From Candidatus Levyibacteriota bacterium (lineage in GTDB: Bacteria > Patescibacteriota > Microgenomatia > Levybacterales > UBA12049), in contig JACPLF010000010.1 of NCBI GenBank assembly GCA_016186645.1, forward strand, positions 10,269 through 74,268: a stretch of DNA of 64,000 nucleotides, read 5' to 3'. The translations under genes and the position numbers were made by a program. How positions within the stretch are numbered: the first letter of the stretch is position 1; each line of letters starts with the position of its first letter. Under the pieces are notes generated by a model. It was not told the DNA's origin, made no database searches, and was given only the letters and a program-made list of their open reading frames with translations. Of this stretch, positions 2,942 to 37,910 are shown piece after piece.

Positions 2942-3820
2942 ATGACTAAATCTCATTATCAGCACCTTAGGGACAGATGGCGAGCCCGACATCAGGACTT
3001 ACAAAGGACACTTTGGAATAAGCATAAAGAATCTTTAGACTGGCTCTCTAACAATTATAGACAGCTGGTAGCAGGCAGCCTGGGAGGATTGATGCTTCTG
3101 ACTGGACACGCCTCCACTCCCACCCTAAATTTCCCTCAGGCTGGTGCTTCTGAGTCTGCAGAGAAAATAATTGATAAGAGAGTGTTTTTGATCTCAGATT
3201 TAGCTAAAATTTTACCTACCCAGGTGAGAACCCTAACTGCCGATGAAGAACAAAAAGCTTTAGACATTTTATCCAGAACTTTTAATTTGAAGCTTGCAGC
3301 CGAACTAGAAGGAAAAAGACTTAACAGAAGCTACGGATTGATAGGTGCAGAGCAACATTTAGCACGATACCCGGGAGATACTCTAAGTACTCATTTTGAT
3401 CAAGAAGAGGAGAGAGAATCATATTGGCAATCGGGAATGGCGCCTGGGCTTGGCGCATGGAGATATTTTGCTAATTCGAGAGACTCACTTACGCAATTAG
3501 ACGCAGATAGGGAAAAATACTACATTGCAGTTCAGACTTTTTTGTCAAAAGACTTTAATAACCGGTTTGCAGAATATAGGGATTTTTATAAATATAGAAA
3601 AATGTTGGTAGTCAACCCAAATAATGGGAAGGCGATAGTTGTCGATATCGGAGATGCGGGGCCCGGTGAATCAACGGGTAAACACTTGGGAGGATCTCCA
3701 GAGGTTATGCATTATCTTGAAAGATTTGATGGAAGACAAAGAGGGCCAGTGTTGTACTTTTTTATAGATGATCCAGATGATAAGATTAAGTTGGGACCGA
3801 TAAGCGAGTTGTCATCCTGA
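2942..3820 (+). CDS. Hypothetical protein with N-proximal hydrophobic segment; C-terminal region faintly resembles a DPBB/3D-like fold
   Basis: 292 aa ORF with LVAGSLGGLMLLTGHAS. C-terminal NPNNGKAIVVDIGDAGPGESTGKHLGGSPEV. No confident family. Confidence 0.45.
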   Translation: MTKSHYQHLRDRWRARHQDLQRTLWNKHKESLDWLSNNYRQLVAGSLGGLMLLTGHASTPTLNFPQAGASESAEKIIDKRVFLISDLAKILPTQVRTLTADEEQKALDILSRTFNLKLAAELEGKRLNRSYGLIGAEQHLARYPGDTLSTHFDQEEERESYWQSGMAPGLGAWRYFANSRDSLTQLDADREKYYIAVQTFLSKDFNNRFAEYRDFYKYRKMLVVNPNNGKAIVVDIGDAGPGESTGKHLGGSPEVMHYLERFDGRQRGPVLYFFIDDPDDKIKLGPISELSS

Positions 3821-3829
3821 GATGATATT

Positions 3830-4162
3830 ATGAAAAAATATTTTTATACACATATCATAGACACATCTACTCTTTCTTTAGAATTGGGGAATATGGAATT
3901 AGATGCTGCGGAAAGAGCGCATCTGATTTCGCTTGTTGATTCAAACATTCATCATGCAGTTTTAGACTTAGTTTTATCAGAGCTTAATCCTGTAGATAAA
4001 AAAACATTTTTAGCCCACTTAGCATCGGAAAACCATGACAAAGTCTGGAAATTTTTAAATGGGAAGGTAGAGAATATTGAAGAAAAAATAAAAAAAACCG
4101 CAGAAGATTTAAAAAAAGAGTTACACAAAGACATAGAAGAAGTACGAACGATTAAGGATTAA
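3830..4162 (+). CDS. Hypothetical small acidic/lysine-rich protein
   Basis: 110 aa ORF 10 bp after the previous stop; no recognised motif. Confidence 0.35.
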   Translation: MKKYFYTHIIDTSTLSLELGNMELDAAERAHLISLVDSNIHHAVLDLVLSELNPVDKKTFLAHLASENHDKVWKFLNGKVENIEEKIKKTAEDLKKELHKDIEEVRTIKD

Positions 4163-7061: not shown

Positions 7062-7090
7062 GGAAATAAATGTAGGTGGCGAATCTGCTT

Positions 7091-16434: not shown

Positions 16435-17046
16435 ATGCAGTCCGAACATGGGTCATCTGTTCATGAATCGAAGCCTGAAAGAGGATCATTTTCTCCAGAA
16501 GTTGTTAGGAGATTAAAGCAAGAAGGTTATCAAATTTTTACTTTGGACGGCGATTCACTGAGGATTTTGCAAGAAAAAAGAAAAATATCAAGTTCATATG
16601 CTGCTGACTATTTTAATATCAATGATGGGCATTCAGAGCTAAGGCAAATTGCAATTCTGCCGAATCAATTATTTTTGCCCGTTTTGCCAGTAAAAGAAGT
16701 ATATAAACCAGGTTCATTTCCACATATTCCTAGAAAAACTTTTCAACAGCAAGAAAAGGATGTAGAAGAGTATTCCAGACGTTTCTCTAAAACAATTGGA
16801 GGTACGAAGGCTATCATTGGTCAGATTTCCGATTATGCTGCAATTGCGTCTCTATATCTTGAGGAATCTGAGAATTATATTTTTGATGCGTTTCTTTATG
16901 TCCAAGATAGATCTCCTAAGGGGGATAATCTTTTGGCTTTTGTTGGTAGACATATGGCTGGAATAGGTGTGAGCGTGTATCAATGGGATGCTCATTTAGA
17001 CGGAAATCGACAGCCTAAAGTTGCTCCACTTATAATTCCTGCTTAG
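16435..17046 (+). CDS. Hypothetical protein (no recognised motif), own promoter with extended -10 (TGAGATAAT)
   Basis: 203 aa ORF; TTGCAT ... TGAGATAATG upstream. Lies between rmlB and the TrpR-like cassette. Confidence 0.45.
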   Translation: MQSEHGSSVHESKPERGSFSPEVVRRLKQEGYQIFTLDGDSLRILQEKRKISSSYAADYFNINDGHSELRQIAILPNQLFLPVLPVKEVYKPGSFPHIPRKTFQQQEKDVEEYSRRFSKTIGGTKAIIGQISDYAAIASLYLEESENYIFDAFLYVQDRSPKGDNLLAFVGRHMAGIGVSVYQWDAHLDGNRQPKVAPLIIPA

Positions 17047-17136: not shown

Positions 17137-17160
17137 TTCAACAGTTTGAATCATTGAACC
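17137..17160. repeat. 24-bp direct repeat TTCAACAGTTTGAATCATTGAACC (copy 1; copy 2 at 17638-17661), imperfect palindrome with TTCAA/TTGAA arms
   Basis: Exact 24/24 identity; the two copies immediately bracket the TrpR-like gene 17169..17642. Confidence 0.85.
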
Positions 17161-17168
17161 GATAGATA

Positions 17169-17642
17169 TCAAAACTTCTCTCTTTTGAGTTTTCTCCTAA
17201 GCAATTCTTTTCCTTTTTTACTTTTCCTTTCAAATCCTATGCTTTCAAATCGCTTTGGCGGAGATAGTCTTATTAATATTTCTTCTATGTTGTCAATTAA
17301 CGCTTGTTTACTTTGCGCTCTCAATATATTCTCAACGACTTTTCTATAGCCGCCTTTTCCATGTTTTAGCCAGAGCGAAACATTCATGATGGTTGCACGG
17401 GAGACTTTTAATGTGTGGTCAATATACTCGTAAGTTTTACCCTTGGTCAACAATACCGCTATTGCCAGGCGTTTTATGAGCATAATTTTTTCTGCAGGAG
17501 AAAGTAAGTCTTCAATAAAATTTTTTGCCTCAACGGGAGTTTTTATATCGACAACTGTTTTTAAAAAAACCTCAAAGATAGTATTTTCTAATTCCTTGTC
17601 AAGAAATCTTCTGGAAATTTTTGACATCTTACAATAGTTCAA
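17169..17642 (-). CDS. TrpR/YerC/YecD-family HTH DNA-binding protein with basic C-terminal tail
   Basis: LLSPAEKIMLIKRLAIAVLLTKGKTYEYIDHTLKVSRATIMNV matches the TrpR_YerC-type helix-turn-helix. Paralog of 31856..32266. Confidence 0.55.
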   Translation of the reverse strand: MNYCKMSKISRRFLDKELENTIFEVFLKTVVDIKTPVEAKNFIEDLLSPAEKIMLIKRLAIAVLLTKGKTYEYIDHTLKVSRATIMNVSLWLKHGKGGYRKVVENILRAQSKQALIDNIEEILIRLSPPKRFESIGFERKSKKGKELLRRKLKREKF

Positions 17643-17661
17643 CAGTTTGAATCATTGAACC
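17638..17661. repeat. 24-bp direct repeat copy 2 (overlaps the start codon of the TrpR-like gene)
   Basis: Identical to 17137-17160. Confidence 0.85.
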
Positions 17662-30127: not shown

Positions 30128-30580
30128 TTAAGAATTAAGGGATTCCTTTACGATTTTGCTGACTATTCCTCCGTCGGCTTTGCCTTTTACTTTTGGCATT
30201 AATGATCCCATGACTTTTCCCATTTCAGCAACTGTTGTTGCGCCCATTTCGCGGATTGTTTCCTTGACGATTTCGCGGATTTGGTCTTCGCTCATTTGTT
30301 GCGGAAGATAGACTTTCAACATTTCGAGTTCTTTACTTTCTTTTTCTGCTAATTCAGAACGGTTTGCTTTCTTGAATTCTTCAATAGAATCCCTTCTTTG
30401 TTTTGCTTCTTTTTGAATTACAGATAAAACATCTTCATCTGTTGCTTCATATCCTGCTCCGCCCTTCTGGATTTCATAATAGTTAATTGCGGAAAGAAGC
30501 AGTCTAAGAACAGAAGTTTTTAAAACATCTCTTGAGAGCATTGCTTGTTTCAATTCTTCTTGTAATTTTTTCTTAAGCAT
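30128..30580 (-). CDS. GatB/YqeY domain-containing protein
   Basis: [33 protein letters not shown]; 150 aa. Confidence 0.75.
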
Positions 30581-31754
30581 ATTTTTGCAGCTCTTTTATT
30601 CTATCAGTTTTTTCCCAAGGAAGGTTTAAATCCAATCTTCCAAAATGTCCGTATGCTGCAACTTGCCTATAAAGCGGAGCCCGCAGTCCCAAATGTTTTA
30701 TTATCATTCCCGGTCTCAAATCAAATACTTTTATAACTGTCTCACTTAATTTTTCATCGTCAATTTTTCCTGTTCCAAAAGCATCTACCAAAACAGACAT
30801 TGGCGCCGGTCTTCCAATAGCATAGGATATTTGCACTTCGCATTTTTTGGCAAGTCCCGCTGCAACAATATTTTTTGCAATATAGCGCGCCATATACTGA
30901 GCGGATCTATCTACTTTGGTTGGATCTTTTCCGGAAAAAGCTCCGCCTCCGTGACGCGAATATCCGCCATAAGTATCAACAATTATTTTTCTTCCTGTTA
31001 ATCCCGTGTCTGCCTGCGGCCCTCCGATAACAAATCTTCCGGTCGTATTAACATGATATTTTGTTTTGCTGTCCACTAATTTTTTAGGTAAAACTTTTAG
31101 AATTACTTTATTAATAATCTCACGTTTTAGTTTGTCTTGATTGATATGTTCATCGTGTTGTGCGGCAATCAAAACCTGGTCAATTCTCAAAGGTCTGCCG
31201 TCTTTATATTCAACTGTAATTTGAGATTTTCCATCAGGTCTTAAGCCTTTAATTATTTTTTTCTTTCGGACAAGGGAGAGTCTTTGACACAATTTATGAG
31301 CAAGCACTATTGGCAAAGGCATTAATTCCGCAGTTTCATCAATTGCAAATCCAAACATCAGTCCTTGATCTCCAGCCCCCAATTTTTCCAAATCTTCTTG
31401 GACAATCTTTCCGCCTTTTTCTTCTTTGTAGCTATCAACGCCTTTTGCAATATCTGAGGATTGTCCGTGAATCGCAATTGTAACTCCGCTTGTTTCGAAG
31501 TGAAATCCGTAGCGTGCATCTGTGTAGCCGATATCTTTAATTACCTGCCTCACAATTTCCGGAATCTCAACATAAATATTTGTTGTAATCTCTCCGGCCA
31601 CAAAAATAACACCATTTGTTATTAACGCTTCTACAGCAACTCGGGCTTTGGGGTCCTGCCTTAGAATTTCGTCCAAAATTGCGTCTGCAATTTGATCGCA
31701 CATTTTATCAGGGTGTCCTTCTGTCACAGATTCCGAAGTAAAATATCTTCTCAT
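30573..31754 (-). CDS. metK: S-adenosylmethionine synthetase
   Basis: [50 protein letters not shown]. Confidence 0.9.
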
Positions 31755-31819
31755 TATTAAGTTTTGAGTATAGGGTATTACAATTAGTTAATCAAGCATT
31801 TTTATTTGCAATAAAGTTT

Positions 31820-31836
31820 CGTTGTCTAGACAACGG
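31820..31836. promoter_or_regulatory. Palindromic site CGTTGTCTAGACAACGG (core GTTGTCTAGACAAC), copy 1, between the metK start and the TrpR-like gene stop
   Basis: Perfect 14-bp palindrome; second copy at 32273-32290, 8 nt upstream of the TrpR-like ATG. Confidence 0.6.
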
Positions 31837-31855
31837 AACAATTCTTTAACTTTAA

Positions 31856-32266
31856 TTAACGATCTACATCTTTTCTTTTAAAACCGGTATACTCCTTCTT
31901 TTTAAAAACAAGCTTTGGTCCGCCAATAAGTCGATATTTTTTTCTAGCGTACTCATTTTCTACTTTTTTCCTCCTTTTGTTAATTAAATCTAAAAAAAGA
32001 AAATTTTCATCCAGCTTTTTTGCTACAGACATGATTGTATTTTTTCCCACTTTTAGGGTTTTTGCTATCTCATCAATTCCCATCCCCTCCCTTATGTATT
32101 CGGCGACAAGAATTCTTCTTCCTATTTTTAGCTTTTCGTCATGAGTCAGTAAGCCTTTTATTATTTTCTCAACTTCATCTCCATTTTTTGCCGCAAGAAA
32201 AGCATCCCTTAATCGATTGAAAGCATCATATATATCATCTTTTGTCAAAAATTTATATCTTCTCAT
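31856..32266 (-). CDS. TrpR/YerC/YecD-family HTH DNA-binding protein with basic C-terminal tail (paralog of 17169..17642)
   Basis: LLTHDEKLKIGRRILVAEYIREGMGIDEIAKTLKVGKNTIMSV; C-terminal KRRKKVENEYARKKYRL... Confidence 0.55.
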   Translation of the reverse strand: MRRYKFLTKDDIYDAFNRLRDAFLAAKNGDEVEKIIKGLLTHDEKLKIGRRILVAEYIREGMGIDEIAKTLKVGKNTIMSVAKKLDENFLFLDLINKRRKKVENEYARKKYRLIGGPKLVFKKKEYTGFKRKDVDR

Positions 32267-32272
32267 TTAAAT

Positions 32273-32290
32273 CCGTTGTCTAGACAACGA
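32273..32290. promoter_or_regulatory. Palindromic site CCGTTGTCTAGACAACGA, copy 2, in the TrpR-like gene promoter
   Basis: Same 14-bp core palindrome as 31821-31834. Confidence 0.6.
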
Positions 32291-32374
32291 GACAAAACAC
32301 GCGCAGAAATATTTTATATGTTAGATAAAATTTATGCAAATATTAAGAAGAATAAGAAGAAATAGGAAATTTAT

Positions 32375-32794
32375 TTAGGGACTGGAGGCTAATTGTCTAG
32401 TTGGTATTAGGGATTTTAAAATTTTTAAAAGCAGAACATAATTACTAGCTTCTTCTAGAGTCATTTCTCGTTCAGGGTCTGAGCTTATGCCTGTATTAAC
32501 TTTTTCTTTTGGTCGTACAAACGCGTTAGGATACGTTTTCAGCGGGTCTCCCGGTCCTAGACGGAATAAAGCTTCATGAGGCCAATCCCGAACATTTATT
32601 ATAAATGTTTCTACCTTATCAGAAGGATAAACTCTTATGTGAACTTTTCTTGGTTGACCTTGATTTTGGACAGGAATTTCGTATTCAAATGTAGTAGCCT
32701 CCTTAAGTTGATGGGAATTAGTTAATCCTGCAATTGCACCAAAGAGAAATGCAATTATTGGTCTGCTTTCTCTAGGTTTAAGCGCTTCTACCAT
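32375..32794 (-). CDS. Hypothetical protein
   Basis: ORF 32375..32884 trimmed to the internal Met (MVEALKPRESRP) to avoid 65-nt overlap with the cca 3' end. No motif recognised. Confidence 0.35.
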   Translation of the reverse strand: MVEALKPRESRPIIAFLFGAIAGLTNSHQLKEATTFEYEIPVQNQGQPRKVHIRVYPSDKVETFIINVRDWPHEALFRLGPGDPLKTYPNAFVRPKEKVNTGISSDPEREMTLEEASNYVLLLKILKSLIPTRQLASSP

Positions 32795-32819
32795 GAATGT
32801 ATTGTATTGTAATAATAAT

Positions 32820-34277
32820 CTATTTGTCAACAGTCCGGATTCGTTTAATGAGATATTCTTTAGTATTTTTAGATAAATCTTCATCGACTTCGAGAAAAAG
32901 TTTATTCAAGATTTCGCCGATTTTTGGTCCCGGTTTAATACTTAATTCTTTTATGATGTCATTTCCGTCAATGGCTAAATCATTAATAGAAAAAGGTAAT
33001 GGTTTTAATTGCTCCTCAATTCTTTTTTTAAATAATTTCAGTCTCCAGCTTTCTGCAGTTTGGGTTCCGCCGCCAAGTCTGTCCCCGATTCTTATATCCA
33101 TCATGTCTTTTACATTCTCAACGCCAATTCTTCTTATAAATCTTCTTATTCCGGCATCTGATAATTTCTCGTCCACCGTAAACATGTGCCAGCGAATTAA
33201 ATTCACAATCTTATTGCGTTCTTTTTTTGAAAATTTGAGACGATCGCAAATCTCTCTTGCTATATTTGTTCCGGCAACTTCATGATTGTAAAAAATTACG
33301 AGTCCTTCTTCATCCTTACTCATCACTTTGGGTTTTCCTACGTCATGCAGAAGCGCTGCAAGTTTTATAATAGGATCAAGGGACGGACAAAATTTCATAG
33401 ACAATACGTTGTGAGTAAATACATCATCCGTGTGATGGCGGCCGGGCCTTTTTTGGGAAACTCCAACTCCTTCCATTAATTCTGGAAGAATATAATTTAA
33501 AAGATCAGATTTTTGTAAGAGCAAGACCCCTTCATAAGCTTTGTCACTTGCTAAAATTCTCAAAAGTTCAACACGAATTCTTTCTCCCGAAACTTTTTTA
33601 ATAAGTTGGGCATCAGCGATTACTTCTCTCCAAGTTTTTTCCTCAATAGCGAAAGAAAGTTCAGTCGCAATTCTGACAGCTCGCAAAAGTCTAAGCGCAT
33701 CTTCCTTGAATCGTGCTTTTGGGTTTCCAACAGCCCGAATAATTTTATTTTTGATATCTTTTTGCCCGTCATATGGATCAACAAGATTAGTTGAGAGTTG
33801 AGAGTTGAAAGTTGAGAGTTTCATAGCGATGGCGTTGATGGTGAAGTCGCGGCGGGCAAGATCTTCCTCGATAGATTTTCCCCATGATACTTTTTCAGGA
33901 TGTCTACTGTCGAAAAAACCCTGCTCGGTACGAAAAGTAGTTATTTCAACGATTATTTTTTGTGTCATCCTGGCTTGTCCAGGATCAGATTCTGGAGTCG
34001 TTGCTTCGCTCCTCCCCAGAATGACGGGGATGCCCACAGTGCCAAATTTATTATCGTAAAATCCCTCTTTGAAGATTTTAAGAAGATTTTGCGGGGCTGC
34101 ATTTGTGGTCATGTCCCAGTCTTTTACAGGTCTTTTTAAGAGAAGATTCCTAACACATCCTCCGACCAAATATACTTGGAAATTAGCCTTTTCTACTTTT
34201 TTATAAATGTCTAGAATTTGCTGTGGAATAAGTTTTACCATACTGGTATAGTATAGCAATGAAATATCAAATCTCAA
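32820..34277 (-). CDS. cca: CCA-adding tRNA nucleotidyltransferase (class II) with HD domain
   Basis: LVGGCVRNLLLKRPVKDWDMTT (PolA head); HD domain HHTDDVFTHNV...LLHDVGKP. Confidence 0.85.
   Translation of the reverse strand: MRFDISLLYYTSMVKLIPQQILDIYKKVEKANFQVYLVGGCVRNLLLKRPVKDWDMTTNAAPQNLLKIFKEGFYDNKFGTVGIPVILGRSEATTPESDPGQARMTQKIIVEITTFRTEQGFFDSRHPEKVSWGKSIEEDLARRDFTINAIAMKLSTFNSQLSTNLVDPYDGQKDIKNKIIRAVGNPKARFKEDALRLLRAVRIATELSFAIEEKTWREVIADAQLIKKVSGERIRVELLRILASDKAYEGVLLLQKSDLLNYILPELMEGVGVSQKRPGRHHTDDVFTHNVLSMKFCPSLDPIIKLAALLHDVGKPKVMSKDEEGLVIFYNHEVAGTNIAREICDRLKFSKKERNKIVNLIRWHMFTVDEKLSDAGIRRFIRRIGVENVKDMMDIRIGDRLGGGTQTAESWRLKLFKKRIEEQLKPLPFSINDLAIDGNDIIKELSIKPGPKIGEILNKLFLEVDEDLSKNTKEYLIKRIRTVDK
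33790..33820. repeat. Heptamer tandem repeat (GTTGAGA/GTTGAAA)x4 inside cca (encodes LSTFNSQLSTN linker on the minus strand)
   Basis: gttgagagttgagagttgaaagttgagagtt, read directly. Confidence 0.85.
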
Positions 34278-36001
34278 ATCTCAAATCTCAAATCTCAAAT
34301 CCAAAAGACCTCATTAAAATTCTGCTTGCAAATCGGGGAATAAAAACCAAGAAAGAGATTGAAGATTTTCTGAATCCAAAACTTGTAAAAGTTACTGCTA
34401 AAAGCGTTGGGATAGATACTCAACAACTGAAAAAAACAGTCGCTAGAATTAAAAAAGCGATAAAAAATAAAGAACAAATTGTAGTTTTTGGAGATTATGA
34501 TGTTGATGGTATTTGCGGCACAGCAATTCTTTGGGAGACCCTTCGGCTCGCTTCGCTTGCTCAGGGCAAGCCCTACGAAAATGTTTTTCCATACATTCCT
34601 CATCGAATTGACGAAGGCTACGGTTTGTCAATAAAAGGCATTCAAAATGTTCAGGATAAATACAAGAATGTAAAATTAATCATAACGGTTGACAATGGGA
34701 TTGTTGCAAATAAAGCAGTTGATTTTGCAAACAAAAATGATATTGATGTAATAATCACTGATCATCATGTACCATCCAAAATTAAACCTAAAGCATTATC
34801 AATAGTTCACACGACAAAATTATGCGGAACCGGAGTGGCTTGGATACTTTCAGATGAGATGCTGAACTCCTCCAAGAGGACTTTCCTCAGCGGAGGTGGC
34901 GCAGTTCAGCATGACAATATGCATAAAAACCATTTAGAATTGGTAGCGCTTGCGACTGTTGCAGATTTGGTTTCCCTAAAAGGAGCAAATAGAACACTTC
35001 TTAAGTTTGGTTTGGAAGGACTTCGAAAAACAAAAAGAATTGGACTTCTGGAATTATTTAAAGAAGCCGGGTTAAGAAAAGAATCTGCTGGAGTTTATGA
35101 AATAGGCCATATAATTGCGCCTAGGCTAAATGCAATGGGAAGACTTGAGTATGCGATGGATAGTCTGAGATTGATATGCACGAATAATCAAAAAAGAGCA
35201 GAAGAACTAGCGCGATTGCTAGGAAGTACGAATAAAGAAAGACAGGATCTAACGCTGCAATCAGTTTTACATGCCAAATCTGCAATTCAGAATTCAAAAT
35301 CTAGAATTCAGAATTTGATTTTTATTTCGCATGAGTCATATCAGCCAGGCGTAATTGGATTAATTGCGGGGAAAATGGTTGAAGAATTTTATCGTCCTGC
35401 AATAGTTGTTTCAATCGGGGAAAAATTTAGCAAGGCATCGGCAAGATCAGTTCACGGATTTAATATTATAGAATTTATCCGCGGTGCATCAGAATTATTA
35501 ATTGATGCAGGAGGACATCCAATGGCAGCTGGGTTTACTGTTGAAACAGCGAAACTTCTGAAACTCCAAAAAGCGCTGGAAGATAAGGCAGAATTAGCGC
35601 TTAGTAAAGATTTGTTAACCCGCAGTCTTAGGATTGATTGCGAGTTGCCTTTGTCGGCTATTAATATAAATTTATATGAATCATTGCAAGCGCTTTACCC
35701 GTTTGGGATGGGTAATCCAGAGCCCACTTTTATAAGTAAAGGCGTTGTGGTTGAAGATATAAGATTGGTTGGAGCAGAAAATAAACATCTAAAGTTTAGA
35801 TTTAAGATTCAAGATTTAAGATTTATGATTGATGGAATTGGATTTGGGATGGGAGAAATGTCCGCAAAAATACACATTGGCGACAAAGTAGATATCGTTT
35901 ATACGATTGATGAAAATGAGTGGCCTGCCCCTCGGAGCCTTGGCGAAGTGGGGAATGGAGAAAAAAGACTGCAATTGAAGATTAAAGATCTAACGAGCTA
36001 A
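34259..36001 (+). CDS. recJ: Single-stranded-DNA-specific exonuclease RecJ
   Basis: DHH motifs (VVFGDYDVDGICGTAIL; ITDHH), DHHA1 region, C-terminal OB-like. N-terminal extension MKYQISNLKSQISNPKD encoded by a heptamer repeat. Confidence 0.85.
   Translation: MKYQISNLKSQISNPKDLIKILLANRGIKTKKEIEDFLNPKLVKVTAKSVGIDTQQLKKTVARIKKAIKNKEQIVVFGDYDVDGICGTAILWETLRLASLAQGKPYENVFPYIPHRIDEGYGLSIKGIQNVQDKYKNVKLIITVDNGIVANKAVDFANKNDIDVIITDHHVPSKIKPKALSIVHTTKLCGTGVAWILSDEMLNSSKRTFLSGGGAVQHDNMHKNHLELVALATVADLVSLKGANRTLLKFGLEGLRKTKRIGLLELFKEAGLRKESAGVYEIGHIIAPRLNAMGRLEYAMDSLRLICTNNQKRAEELARLLGSTNKERQDLTLQSVLHAKSAIQNSKSRIQNLIFISHESYQPGVIGLIAGKMVEEFYRPAIVVSIGEKFSKASARSVHGFNIIEFIRGASELLIDAGGHPMAAGFTVETAKLLKLQKALEDKAELALSKDLLTRSLRIDCELPLSAININLYESLQALYPFGMGNPEPTFISKGVVVEDIRLVGAENKHLKFRFKIQDLRFMIDGIGFGMGEMSAKIHIGDKVDIVYTIDENEWPAPRSLGEVGNGEKRLQLKIKDLTS
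34269..34303. repeat. Heptamer tandem repeat (AAATCTC)x5 at the 5' end of recJ
   Basis: aaatctcaaatctcaaatctcaaatctcaaatcca, read directly. Confidence 0.85.
35288..35315. repeat. Degenerate heptamer repeat (CAGAATT/CAAAATC/TAGAATT/CAGAATT) inside recJ
   Basis: Read directly; encodes IQNSKSRIQN. Confidence 0.7.
35798..35825. repeat. Heptamer tandem repeat (AGATTTA/AGATTCA)x4 inside recJ
   Basis: agatttaagattcaagatttaagattta, read directly; encodes FRFKIQDLRF. Confidence 0.8.
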
Positions 36002-36205
36002 CGGTCTACCGATATTTTGTCTTCCTGTTATTCCTGATGTTTCAACTCTGTTTCTCGTCCCTTCTCTCAAGACATATCTTCTTAGATGGGTTAAAGTGCG
36101 CACAGATCTTACTTGTGGATTAACAACAGGTTTTTTAAGCCATTCATGTGGATGGTCGTAGGGTCTAATTGCTTGAGGAGTAAGACTTGTTTCTATGCGA
36201 TTCAT
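35990..36205 (-). CDS. Hypothetical Arg-rich small protein; downstream half of a possibly interrupted about 144-aa ORF
   Basis: 71 aa; same frame as 36209..36424, separated only by TAA + ATT. Confidence 0.25.
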   Translation of the reverse strand: MNRIETSLTPQAIRPYDHPHEWLKKPVVNPQVRSVRTLTHLRRYVLREGTRNRVETSGITGRQNIGRPLAR

Positions 36206-36208
36206 AAT

Positions 36209-36424
36209 TTATTTTTGTGTTGTAGGTTTATTCAAAGCACTATCAACTCTATTAAGAAGTCTTGCGGGAACAAATTGCACGCCGCCTACATCTTGCACGT
36301 AAGGCTTTAATGCTTCATGTAATGGTGGTTTTGTTGGTATCCAGGGACCGAAACAGGCTTCCGAAATATTGCCTAAGACACGGCTAGCTTCTTGACCCCC
36401 GATGAAGCCTACTTCTTTCTTCAT
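36209..36424 (-). CDS. Hypothetical small protein; upstream half of a possibly interrupted ORF
   Basis: 71 aa: MKKEVGFIGGQEASRVLGNISEACFGPWIPTKPP...; no recognised motif. Confidence 0.25.
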   Translation of the reverse strand: MKKEVGFIGGQEASRVLGNISEACFGPWIPTKPPLHEALKPYVQDVGGVQFVPARLLNRVDSALNKPTTQK

Positions 36425-36488
36425 AACAAAAGCTTATAAGATAGTATCAGACTTAGCTTGACAGGTTTCTGACTTTAAGCTGACAGTT

Positions 36489-36506
36489 TTGTAATCTAGA
36501 TTACAA
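36489..36506. promoter_or_regulatory. Perfect 18-bp palindrome TTGTAATCTAGATTACAA upstream of the aspS promoter
   Basis: Read directly; shares the TCTAGA core with the palindrome at 32275. Followed by AGCTTGTCAAGA and a TACAAT -10-like box before aspS. Confidence 0.5.
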
Positions 36507-36572
36507 AACAAGCGTAATTAATCTCACCAGCTTGTCAAGATCAAAAAACTAATATACAATGTTATCTATTAA

Positions 36573-37910
36573 ATGTCAAACCGTACATTAATTTCGGAAA
36601 CAGTTGATTGTGTGGGGAAAATAGTAGCTGTTGAAGGCTGGATTCATTTACGCCGCGATCATGGTAAACTTATTTTTCTAAGCTTTAGAGATAGATCGGG
36701 ATTCCTTCAAATAGTCGTAAATGCGAAGGAATCTTCAAGCGCTTATGAGACTGCAAAAAAAGTACGGCCTGAATTTGCGGTTAAAGTAATTGGTCTTGTT
36801 AAAAAGAGGCCGGAAAACGCGGTTGATAAGAATTCAGTTGCAGGCTCAGTTGAGCTTGAAGCTCAGAAAATTAGTATCTTATCCAAAGCAGAAGTTTTGC
36901 CTTTTGATATGGGAGGAAAAGACCTTAATCTGGAACTTCCGACTCTTTTAGATCATCGCGGTTTAAGCTTGCGGCATCAAAAAGTAGCTGCAATTTTTAA
37001 AGTCCAGGAGACAGTTATAGATTCTTTCAGAATTGCATGTAAGAAAAAAGACTTCACGGAATTCCAGTCTCCGGTAATTGTTCCACAAGGCGCGGAAGGC
37101 GGATCCGAAGTTTTTGAAATAAAATATTTTGACCATAAGGCTTACCTTTCTCAAAGTCCGCAATTCTATAAGCAAATCATGGTTGGAGTGTTCGAGCGGG
37201 TTTTTACCGTGAATAAAACAATGAGAGCCGAACCGTCGGTAACAACAAGACACCTAACAGAAGTAACAACTCTTGATGCGGAATTTGGTTTTATTGACAG
37301 TTGGCTTGATCTCATAGATATGGCAGAATATGTTATTAAGTTTATGATAGATAGCGTAAGTAAGCAAAATTTAGATGTCCTTAAAATGTATAACGCAACA
37401 TCTCCAAAAATCTCGGCAAAAATTCCAAGAATAAAATTACGTGAAGCACAAGAAATTATTTTTAAGCGTACAGGCCGCGACAACAGGCAAGATCCTGATC
37501 TTAGTCCGGAAGATGAGCGGGAAATTTGCAGATGGTCTCTTGAGGAAAAGAATTCGGACCTAGTTTTTGTTACCCACTATCCTGTTTCGAAAAGACCATT
37601 TTATACTTTGGAAGATCCCAAGGACAAAGGTTATACATTGAGTTTTGATTTAATCGGGCGGGGAACAGAATGGATGACCGGAGGACAAAGAATAAATGAT
37701 TACAAAAAATTGACAGAGAATGCAAGAAAAAGAGGAATAGATCTAAAAAAAAGCGAAATTTACCTGCAGGCTTTTAGATATGGCATGCCGAGTGAGGGCG
37801 GATTCTCTTTTGGGAGTGAAAGAATCACAATGCATATTTTGGGACTTCAAAATGTTCGGGAAGCGAGTCTTTTCCCAAGAGACATGGAGCGGGTAGATGA
37901 AAGGCTATAA
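36573..37910 (+). CDS. aspS: Aspartyl-tRNA synthetase, archaeal/eukaryotic-type class IIb (AsnRS not fully excluded)
   Basis: N-terminal OB fold. QSPQFYKQ, motif 2 MRAEPSVTTRHLTEVTTLDAEF, motif 3 GGFSFGSERITMHILGL. 445 aa. Confidence 0.65.
   Translation: MSNRTLISETVDCVGKIVAVEGWIHLRRDHGKLIFLSFRDRSGFLQIVVNAKESSSAYETAKKVRPEFAVKVIGLVKKRPENAVDKNSVAGSVELEAQKISILSKAEVLPFDMGGKDLNLELPTLLDHRGLSLRHQKVAAIFKVQETVIDSFRIACKKKDFTEFQSPVIVPQGAEGGSEVFEIKYFDHKAYLSQSPQFYKQIMVGVFERVFTVNKTMRAEPSVTTRHLTEVTTLDAEFGFIDSWLDLIDMAEYVIKFMIDSVSKQNLDVLKMYNATSPKISAKIPRIKLREAQEIIFKRTGRDNRQDPDLSPEDEREICRWSLEEKNSDLVFVTHYPVSKRPFYTLEDPKDKGYTLSFDLIGRGTEWMTGGQRINDYKKLTENARKRGIDLKKSEIYLQAFRYGMPSEGGFSFGSERITMHILGLQNVREASLFPRDMERVDERL

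Follow-up and report, generated by a model that had tools for sequence, protein, structure and literature searches.

Analysis of a 64-kb stretch of DNA (referred to here as the window; GC content, 36%) points to a small gene that is probably a self-bracketed autorepressor cassette, in which a dimeric TrpR-fold helix-turn-helix (HTH) repressor would be encoded between two cognate operators flanking its own gene. The 136-aa product would belong to a clade of dimeric TrpR-fold repressors expanded in the Microgenomates (CPR) and would recognize a long palindrome, tGTAyCGTnGWCT|AGWCnACGrTACa, both flanking copies of which would be its operators. The features of the locus are as follows.

31856 to 32266, minus strand: regulator gene (family A), an open reading frame (ORF) encoding a 136-aa TrpR-superfamily HTH protein.
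32274 to 32289, unstranded: predicted upstream operator copy CGTTGTCTAGACAACG, an exact match whose homologous position is kept in related loci.
31820 to 31835, unstranded: predicted downstream operator copy CGTTGTCTAGACAACG, an exact match; at least 37 of 46 related loci have such a downstream copy, whatever the neighboring gene.
32311 to 32340, minus strand: sigma-70-like promoter candidate of the regulator (TTTGCA-18-TAAAAT or TTGCAT-17-TAAAAT), a consensus match only.
31767 to 31795, minus strand: sigma-70-like promoter candidate of metK (TTGATT-17-TATACT), a consensus match only.
30573 to 31754, minus strand: metK (SAM synthetase), an ORF that neighbors the regulator and lies outside the conserved cassette.

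The sequence CGTTGTCTAGACAACG is a perfect 16-bp palindrome with the core 14-mer GTTGTCTAGACAAC. Its upstream copy is separated from the regulator ATG by 7 nt (8 nt for the 14-mer), and its downstream copy lies 20 nt past the TAA stop, with 65 nt between its far end and the metK ATG (position 31754). The downstream copy extends to a 24-bp near-palindrome, GTTTCGTTGTCTAGACAACGGAAC, at positions 31816 to 31839. Both copies had been reported in the initial annotation, and their positions and their distances to the ATG, the stop, and metK all proved correct by the window sequence. These two copies are the only ones in the 64 kb; the next-best matches have three mismatches, and by chance a given 16-mer would be repeated exactly only about 3e-5 times in a stretch of this length. 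A position weight matrix (PWM) of family-A sites matched the window at three places only, the two copies (32274 to 32289 and 31820 to 31835) and a palindrome at 36486 to 36509.

It is extremely improbable that the palindromes arose by chance or belong to a dispersed repeat unrelated to the gene. The exact 16-mer was found in 76 metagenome stretches, most of them without the gene and only 5 next to a family gene, and at least 13 contigs of one metagenome sample end in a repeat that contains it. However, these repeats are unrelated coincidences: apart from the 5 next to a family gene and about 10 stretches that are intergenic, lie on low-GC CPR-like contigs, and have extended GTAT...ATAC arms, the matches are high-GC chance matches or RT-like ORFs in which the 16-mer encodes RCLDNG. 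Since most matches were of these two kinds, the metagenome scan of the 16-mer could not define a regulon. Also against chance are the two window copies, both located at gene ends, and the paired layout seen with different sequences in dozens of loci. The palindrome is thus very unlikely to be the dispersed repeat that the initial annotation had considered as a possible alternative.

A scan of a genome collection yielded 47 related loci from Levy-, Woese-, and Daviesbacteria and relatives, and the sites in them were centered by an iterated PWM. In most family-A loci, one palindrome lies 1 to 30 nt 5′ of the ATG and a second lies 0 to 40 nt 3′ of the stop. The PWM placed a site on each side of the gene in 33 loci, a number that rose to at least 37 of 46 once four gene boundaries had been corrected; one copy is absent from about 9 of the 46. 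The upstream and downstream 18-mers of the same locus were identical at a median of 16 of 18 positions, compared to 13 of 18 for pairs taken across loci, and flanks matching at 15 or more of 18 positions were found for 4 of 222 control genes (1.8%), these being other genes in the same loci. No more copies were found within 3 kb on either side of the related loci, and 273 kb of flanking DNA contained a single genuine extra site. The sites conform to the family-A consensus given above, with the core form CGTnGWCTAGWCnACG, in which T at −6 and C at −2 are invariant and positions −10, −9, −8, −5, −4, and −3 vary. The two copies are spaced 439 to 488 bp from center to center (median, 452 bp). Orthologues also share their synteny: recJ points away from cca, which is followed in the same direction by the regulator and, further on, by yqeY, and secF points toward yqeY from the far side. 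Other paralogue classes keep neighbors of their own, with the predicted transcription factor (TF) in the orders recA-TF-recX, rseP-TF-frr, and GATase_3-TF-gatC. Because the layout recurs in so many diverged relatives, it appears to be a property of the regulator gene and not a switch for metK.

The same arrangement was found around more distant relatives. The window contains a second TrpR-like paralogue, assigned to family B, which is about 30% identical to family A and scores 49.7 bits against PF01371 and 39.2 bits against TIGR02531 (YerC/YecD), below the cutoff of 42.2. The initial annotation had ascribed a two-site layout to this gene as well, and this was borne out by an exact 24-mer on both sides.

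17169 to 17627, minus strand: family-B paralogue, 152 aa from the ATG at 17627.
17638 to 17661, minus strand: upstream family-B site GGTTCAATGATTCAAACTGTTGAA, exact 24-mer, 10 nt before the ATG.
17137 to 17160, minus strand: downstream family-B site GGTTCAATGATTCAAACTGTTGAA, exact 24-mer, 8 nt after the stop.

The gene 3′ of this paralogue (16435 to 17046, plus strand) is convergent with it. The family-B bracket is repeated, with the site GGTTCAATAGTTCAAACTATCGAACC, in four further loci, where most of the genes that follow are convergent and the copy is kept; the predicted family-B operator has the form GTTCAATAGTTC|GAACTATTGAAC. Brackets also surround four far more distant CPR TrpR-like proteins (profile E values, ∼1e-7 to 1e-8), with an unrelated sequence in each case: one of the TCGTCCGGACGA type, CTATGATATATCATAG, one of the GTTACGTAAC type, and, in L133, 33-nt inverted copies around CTCTAGAG. 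The bracket thus characterizes the CPR TrpR-like radiation as a whole and is no peculiarity of one locus.

The upstream copy occupies a position suited to autorepression. In the window, it lies in the initially transcribed region, 3′ of the promoter-like TTGCAT-17-TAAAAT with a spacer of 21 nt, and the end of the −10 candidate is 29 nt from the operator center. In related loci with a good sigma-70-like promoter, the −10 element ends 5 to 22 nt before the center of the upstream site; the promoters score 9 to 10 out of 12 in L021, L025, L028, L036, and L047 and 9 out of 12 in L002, L005, L010, L011, L018, and L020. With the window included, the −10 candidates, all of them consensus matches, end 5 to 29 nt before the site center. 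At this spacing, the operator falls on the −10 element, the start of transcription, or the initial ∼25 bases of the transcript, a standard location for repression. Binding to the upstream copy, between the −10 element and the start codon, would then shut off the gene's own transcription (negative autoregulation). The autorepression position proposed earlier for this copy is thus supported by the spacing to the −10 candidates as well as by the position kept in related loci.

The assignment of the protein as TrpR/YerC-like was correct at the level of the superfamily but not of the subfamily. Its match to PF01371 (Trp_repressor) is marginal, 29.7 bits against a gathering threshold of 27, and its predicted fold also places it among the TrpR-superfamily HTH proteins. 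However, it scores only 20.4 bits against both the TrpR equivalog model TIGR01321 (cutoff, 67.25) and the YerC/YecD (HisR) model TIGR02531 (cutoff, 42.2) of NCBIfam. The label "TrpR/YerC paralog" therefore overstates its membership; judged by these scores, the protein is neither a TrpR nor a YerC/HisR orthologue. Its sequence matches that of HYW62_04675 from a Candidatus Levybacteria MAG with 100% identity. When 1.8 billion representative proteins were searched with a profile, 400 clusters were obtained at an E value of ≤1e-3 and 44 at ≤1e-10, which means that the family is small, and its members come mostly from Levybacteria and other Microgenomates, as judged from the names of the first-search matches and the related loci.

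An AF2 monomer model of the 136-aa protein (pLDDT, 86.5) has helices at residues 9 to 25, 29 to 39, 42 to 59, 64 to 71 (the first HTH helix), 75 to 87 (the recognition helix), and 90 to 110, followed by a β-hairpin at residues 111 to 126. The HTH corresponds to helices D and E of the all-helical TrpR-type fold. Five helices of the model superpose on the TrpR, YerC, and HisR structures, whereas the additional basic helix (90 to 110) and the hairpin (111 to 126) are absent from TrpR and HisR. This basic C-terminal extension, ∼40 aa beyond the TrpR fold, would be the only candidate interface for a higher-order oligomer. The best Foldseek matches in the PDB were 3FRW, 3KOR, 3G1C, and E. coli TrpR (target TM scores for the best matches, 0.63 to 0.80), and the top 29 were all TrpR, YerC, or HisR structures, with probabilities of 0.99 to 1.00 and target TM scores of 0.59 to 0.80. 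In a profile search of PDB sequences, the nearest solved structure was 3KOR (E = 1e-5), and the recognition helix KVGKNTIMSVAKK aligned to GAGIATITRGSNS of TrpR.

Several observations suggest that the protein reads its sites. First, paralogues of a single genome have different site pairs. A good example of this is MFPJ01, in which L011 is flanked by CGTTGACTAGACAAC, L028 by CCAGTTGTCCAGTCAACCGG, and L032 by CCGTGGACTAGTCCACGG. Second, when the loci are sorted by site, the residues that follow "VG" in the protein track the site class (KN, KQ, NN, RS, RT, YS, LT, etc.). Third, of all protein columns, N76 shares the most mutual information with half-site positions, and S80 and K75 are within the top five of the 136 columns; the test is confounded by phylogeny, but its signal falls on the recognition helix. 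In the alignment, K75, N76, T77, M79, and S80 correspond to TrpR I79, A80, T81, T83, and R84, all listed as DNA contacts (PMC9413887). The three columns with high mutual information, N76, S80, and K75, thus align to Ala80, Arg84, and Ile79 of TrpR, each named as a DNA-contacting residue in the same source (PMC9413887). Both palindromes are very probably operators of the 136-aa protein, as the initial annotation had proposed; the recurring cognate pairs and the covariation with the recognition helix speak for this. The site type of the family is a CTAG-centered palindrome, in line with the TCTAGA-centered palindromes that the annotation had proposed. A candidate recognition code would pair residues 75, 76, and 80 with positions −9 to −3 of the half-site.

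The palindromes might instead act as stem-loops in the 5′ and 3′ untranslated regions of the mRNA, blocking translation or serving as an attenuator, a terminator, or a stability element. Both copies are probably transcribed, the downstream copy was flagged as terminator-like on both strands by a simple scan, and the 5′ copy lies right next to the start codon, so that a hairpin there could interfere with initiation in a lineage with weak Shine-Dalgarno usage. However, we regard this reading as very unlikely. First, it offers no reason for 5′ and 3′ hairpins of identical sequence and no account of why that sequence covaries with recognition-helix residues. Second, the stem is broken by a conserved A:A or T:T at ±3, the commonest asymmetry, which corresponds to a W tolerated independently in either half, and G:U pairs on the sense strand are not in excess (7 mismatches of the G:U type versus 10 of the A:C type). 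Third, asymmetric sites are sometimes inverted between the two sides of a gene (L005 and L015). Fourth, no consistent T-tract follows the downstream copies, and in L128 and L130 the downstream copy lies 68 to 84 nt past the stop, in L128 behind another hairpin. Finally, no Rfam family matches the palindromes; a search of the whole window returned only two tRNAs and no SAM riboswitch or other family upstream of metK. The mismatch pattern, the inverted sites, the missing T-tracts, and the far downstream copies therefore favor a DNA operator over an RNA hairpin or terminator.

The position of the downstream copy invites another interpretation, namely, that it is an operator of metK and that the protein is a SAM- or Met-responsive repressor of both SAM synthetase and itself. 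In minus-strand order, the downstream CGTTGTCTAGACAACG is followed by 24 nt, the metK promoter candidate TTGATT-17-TATACT, and the metK ATG, so that the site lies 5′ of metK on the same strand. The gene is also downstream of the regulator in L001 and L016, and in some other paralogue classes the downstream copy directly precedes a codirectional gene, for example at 35 nt before recX in L010. This interpretation nevertheless appears unlikely. These two loci and the window are the only 3 of ∼20 syntenic loci with metK 3′ of the regulator, and the site stays where metK is absent; elsewhere among the 47 loci, the next gene is yqeY, an ABC ATPase gene, recX, frr, gatC, or another gene, and the regulator still has its downstream copy. 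A convergent gene follows in 17 of 46 family-A loci, most of which retain the copy. Since metK is rarely the next gene and convergent neighbors keep the site, control of metK is not supported. Furthermore, the center of the downstream site is ∼32 nt 5′ of the −35 element of the best metK promoter candidate, a position that does not overlap or occlude it, and the distance from site to metK is not fixed, with values of 74 to 117 nt in the three loci that have metK. The HMMER alignment pairs the co-repressor contact Arg84 of TrpR with Ser80 of family A, a variable residue, and no ligand can be inferred; no link of the 136-aa protein to SAM or Met was found. The earlier view of the gene as an autoregulated dimeric repressor that also controls its neighbor therefore stands for the autorepression layout and falls for metK, because the site is kept whatever gene follows and does not overlap the metK promoter candidate. 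If the cassette affects metK at all, the effect would be incidental and limited to the blocking of read-through, with no dedicated SAM/Met circuit. This corrects a tempting misannotation of the locus as a "metK/SAM regulon." A shared ATGAGAAGATAT (MRRY) at the start of the regulator and metK was judged to be coincidental.

In the autorepressor model, the downstream copy would be a part of the same self-contained cassette. Its most likely role would be either that of a second anchor for a repression loop of ∼450 bp around the gene or that of a protein roadblock, which could stop transcription leaving the gene or entering from convergent neighbors. Precedents for the first option are lambda cI (OR/OL), lac (O3-O1-O2), and gal (OE/OI), where operators are also placed around the regulated gene within a few hundred bp, with a self-acting repressor. 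Those systems, however, need tetramers or octamers and cooperativity. The family-A bracket is tight (the sites lie within ∼40 nt of the start and stop), contains no gene but that of the repressor, and lacks phasing. Between the two copies in family-A loci there was no helical phasing (R = 0.07 at 10.5 bp), and looping is unsupported because of this and because there is no evidence of tetramers. A roadblock, on the other hand, would lie after the stop codon, with no obvious benefit for the regulator's own level. The bracket is kept across subfamilies with unrelated sites, so the downstream copy presumably has a selected function that goes beyond textbook models of autoregulation.

It is possible, if rather unlikely, that site-gene-site is a distinct CPR device in which the operators serve as programmable boundaries, either roadblock insulators or a closed loop, between housekeeping genes and which may spread or be lost by recombination between palindromes. 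Paralogue cassettes are found between housekeeping genes (recA|recX, cca|yqeY, rseP|frr, and gatD|gatC). If this reading were true, each protein would act mainly on the locus that encodes it and on how transcription of the flanking genes is coupled.

A further explanation is that the locus is a relic of a cassette or mobile element, with the two copies as terminal repeats or recombination sites of a small insertion cassette whose only cargo would be an HTH protein that binds the cassette ends, so that the bracket would record arrival and not regulation. Known analogues are Xer-type dif modules, IS1 InsA, and RAYT/REP elements. Some loci seem to fit. In the close relative L122 (neighbors 77 to 86% identical), the regulator gene is missing from the cca-yqeY interval, which contains a solitary 24-bp palindrome at the orthologous place; in L013, the next gene is the one bracketed by two perfect copies, while the upstream copy of the regulator itself is degenerate; L133 has the 33-nt inverted flanks; and paralogues separate genes that are normally neighbors, such as recA|recX. 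The solo site of L122 and the arrangement of L013 may fit a history of cassette insertion and deletion as well as a regulatory one. There are also weak Pfam and NCBIfam HTH matches to IS630, IS1, and TnsD. Even so, we consider this explanation quite unlikely. The transposase matches are far below cutoff, and a deletion between direct repeats would account equally well for the solo site of L122. Within each paralogue class, synteny is conserved across genera, and the paralogues of one genome are only ∼50 to 60% identical and have different ends; from this stable synteny and divergence, there is no sign of recent mobility. The proteins have no catalytic domain, no recombinase is consistently adjacent, and a search of viral contigs found no relatives of the 136-aa protein. 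Likewise, of the features by which an insertion sequence or MITE would be recognized, neither a transposase or recombinase domain nor extra copies within 3 kb on either side were found. Family A resembles IS1 InsA and RAYT/REP in that a gene is hugged by palindromic or inverted sites that its product binds (a prediction in family A) and in the occasional orphan sites, and it differs from them in having no transposase or HUH domain, a stable synteny, and two copies plus a few orphans instead of hundreds of dispersed ones.

Among known regulators, E. coli TrpR is negatively autoregulated through an operator at its own promoter, and we know of no second operator after the trpR stop codon. Family A shares with TrpR the fold (by Foldseek), an alignable HTH in which T77 corresponds to Thr81, and a palindromic operator with CTAG and TGTA...TACA outer arms. 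The two differ in that family-A sites have one central CTAG in a 16- to 28-bp palindrome, compared to two CTAG 8 bp apart for TrpR, and in that family A has the basic ∼40-aa C-terminal extension, does not conserve the Trp contact Arg84, and comprises several paralogues per genome. The TrpR motif is TGTAcTnGTnnACnAgTACA (PMC9413887). The closest solved relatives by sequence (E = 1e-5 to 3e-4) and by fold are those of HisR (YerC/YecD; B. subtilis yerC; 3KOR and 3G1C), a small TrpR-family repressor with a ∼20-bp palindromic motif, cacTTTAnnnnnnTAAAgtg, that is often autoregulated (PMC9413887). The family-A and family-B sites, however, are unrelated to cacTTTAnnnnnnTAAAgtg, and no his genes occur among the neighbors (cca, metK, yqeY, recA/recX, frr, and gatC). 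HisR is also single copy in most genomes and ∼100 aa long, and a downstream operator has not been reported for it.

To our knowledge, very few transcription factors are recognized in CPR/Patescibacteria, and none has been characterized experimentally. A lineage-expanded TrpR-fold family has now been defined, with a predicted operator for each paralogue. A genome holds several mutually distinct predicted protein-operator pairs, and these might serve as orthogonal repressor parts. No description of the family or its layout in CPR was found in the searchable literature, in which the HisR/YerC paper (PMC9413887) alone was useful.

The third PWM match in the window is an orphan.

36486 to 36509, unstranded: orphan perfect 24-bp palindrome GTTTTGTAATCTAGATTACAAAAC, with aspS on one side and two small minus-strand ORFs on the other.

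A TCTAGA-core palindrome had been noted near aspS before; it is real and, at 24 bp, longer than described. A sensitive Rfam search of positions 35900 to 36700 found no RNA gene at this palindrome. In the solo locus L122, the 165-aa ORF beside the single palindrome of the cca-yqeY interval is no homologue of the window's orf169. The orphan palindrome lies ∼24 nt upstream of the −35 candidate of aspS (TTGTCA-17-TACAAT), and L122, a close relative, shares it with CTGG in place of CTAG, along with the aspS promoter candidate. It is probably the target of a paralogue encoded outside the window, because its core, GTAATCTAGATTAC, equals the site class that brackets the paralogues L041 and L042. Given this site and the ∼10 intergenic metagenome sites, the proteins probably have further targets.

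The putative operators of the family-A regulators, the 136-aa TrpR-fold HTH protein in the window and its homologues in related loci, share an invariant CTAG centre, despite the under-representation of this tetranucleotide in the window. CTAG occurs 82 times in window 1-64000; base composition alone predicts 212 occurrences, and a Markov estimate gives 102. Exact matches to the 16-bp palindrome that brackets the regulator gene call for caution. At least 13 contigs of a single metagenome (sample Ga0210059) carry the same 16-mer at their ends, and it is also found within reverse-transcriptase-like ORFs, where it encodes RCLDNG. The repeat bearing it is a multicopy RT-bearing element with no relation to the regulator, which means that exact-pattern matches need not be operator sites.

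Stretches carrying the 16-mer
Ga0210059: L061, L066, L068, L069, L075, L080, L090, L101, L102, L109, L115, L118, L121
Listed beside these for the same 16-mer: L076; L113

In the distant CPR relative L128, the stop codon is followed first by a strong separate hairpin, TTGGCCTCTGTC...GACAGAGGCCAA (L128:1957-2010), and only then by the downstream operator copy; therefore, the operator is probably not the 3′ hairpin of the transcript at that locus.

At L013, two perfect copies of GTGCCGTAGTCTATACTACGGCAC (3436-3455 and 4034-4053) stand on either side of the next gene after the regulator (179 aa), and of the regulator's own upstream copy only a half-site is left, ~84 nt upstream. In L122, from a close relative of the window organism, the interval orthologous to cca-yqeY contains a single 24-bp perfect palindrome, GTTTCGTTGTCTAGACAACGAAAC (7066-7089), and no TrpR-like gene. 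The 3′ flank of this solo palindrome (aaactttatt) agrees with the sequence flanking the downstream copy in the window. It could have arisen by deletion between two copies, or it could be an unoccupied site. Paralogue classes of the regulator (TF) occupy conserved positions between housekeeping genes, and in L010 the recX Shine-Dalgarno sequence directly adjoins the downstream palindrome.

Neighbourhoods of the paralogue classes
recA-TF-recX: L010, L033, L025
rseP-TF-frr: L026, L032
GATase_3 (CobQ-like)-TF-gatC: L039, L041, L042

Small ORFs were also seen near the regulator and aspS.

Window 32375-32884, minus strand: putative 169-aa ORF between cca and the regulator
Window 35990-36424, minus strand: two consecutive 71-aa ORFs between recJ and aspS

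The 169-aa putative ORF has no family match and shares 65 nt with the 3′ end of cca; in L001 it is absent, and the regulator comes straight after cca. The two 71-aa ORFs, in a region that looks higher in GC than its surroundings, matched nothing in Pfam or NCBIfam; they may form a small module of two genes or represent a single gene split in two. The L122 counterpart of the recJ-aspS interval is shorter and alignable only in part.

Among the representative proteins, residues 28-77 of the family profile were matched (E = 1e-9) by P0170. This 1724-aa protein consists of about ten repeats that are almost identical to one another; it is probably repetitive and eukaryote-like, containing an HTH-like unit.
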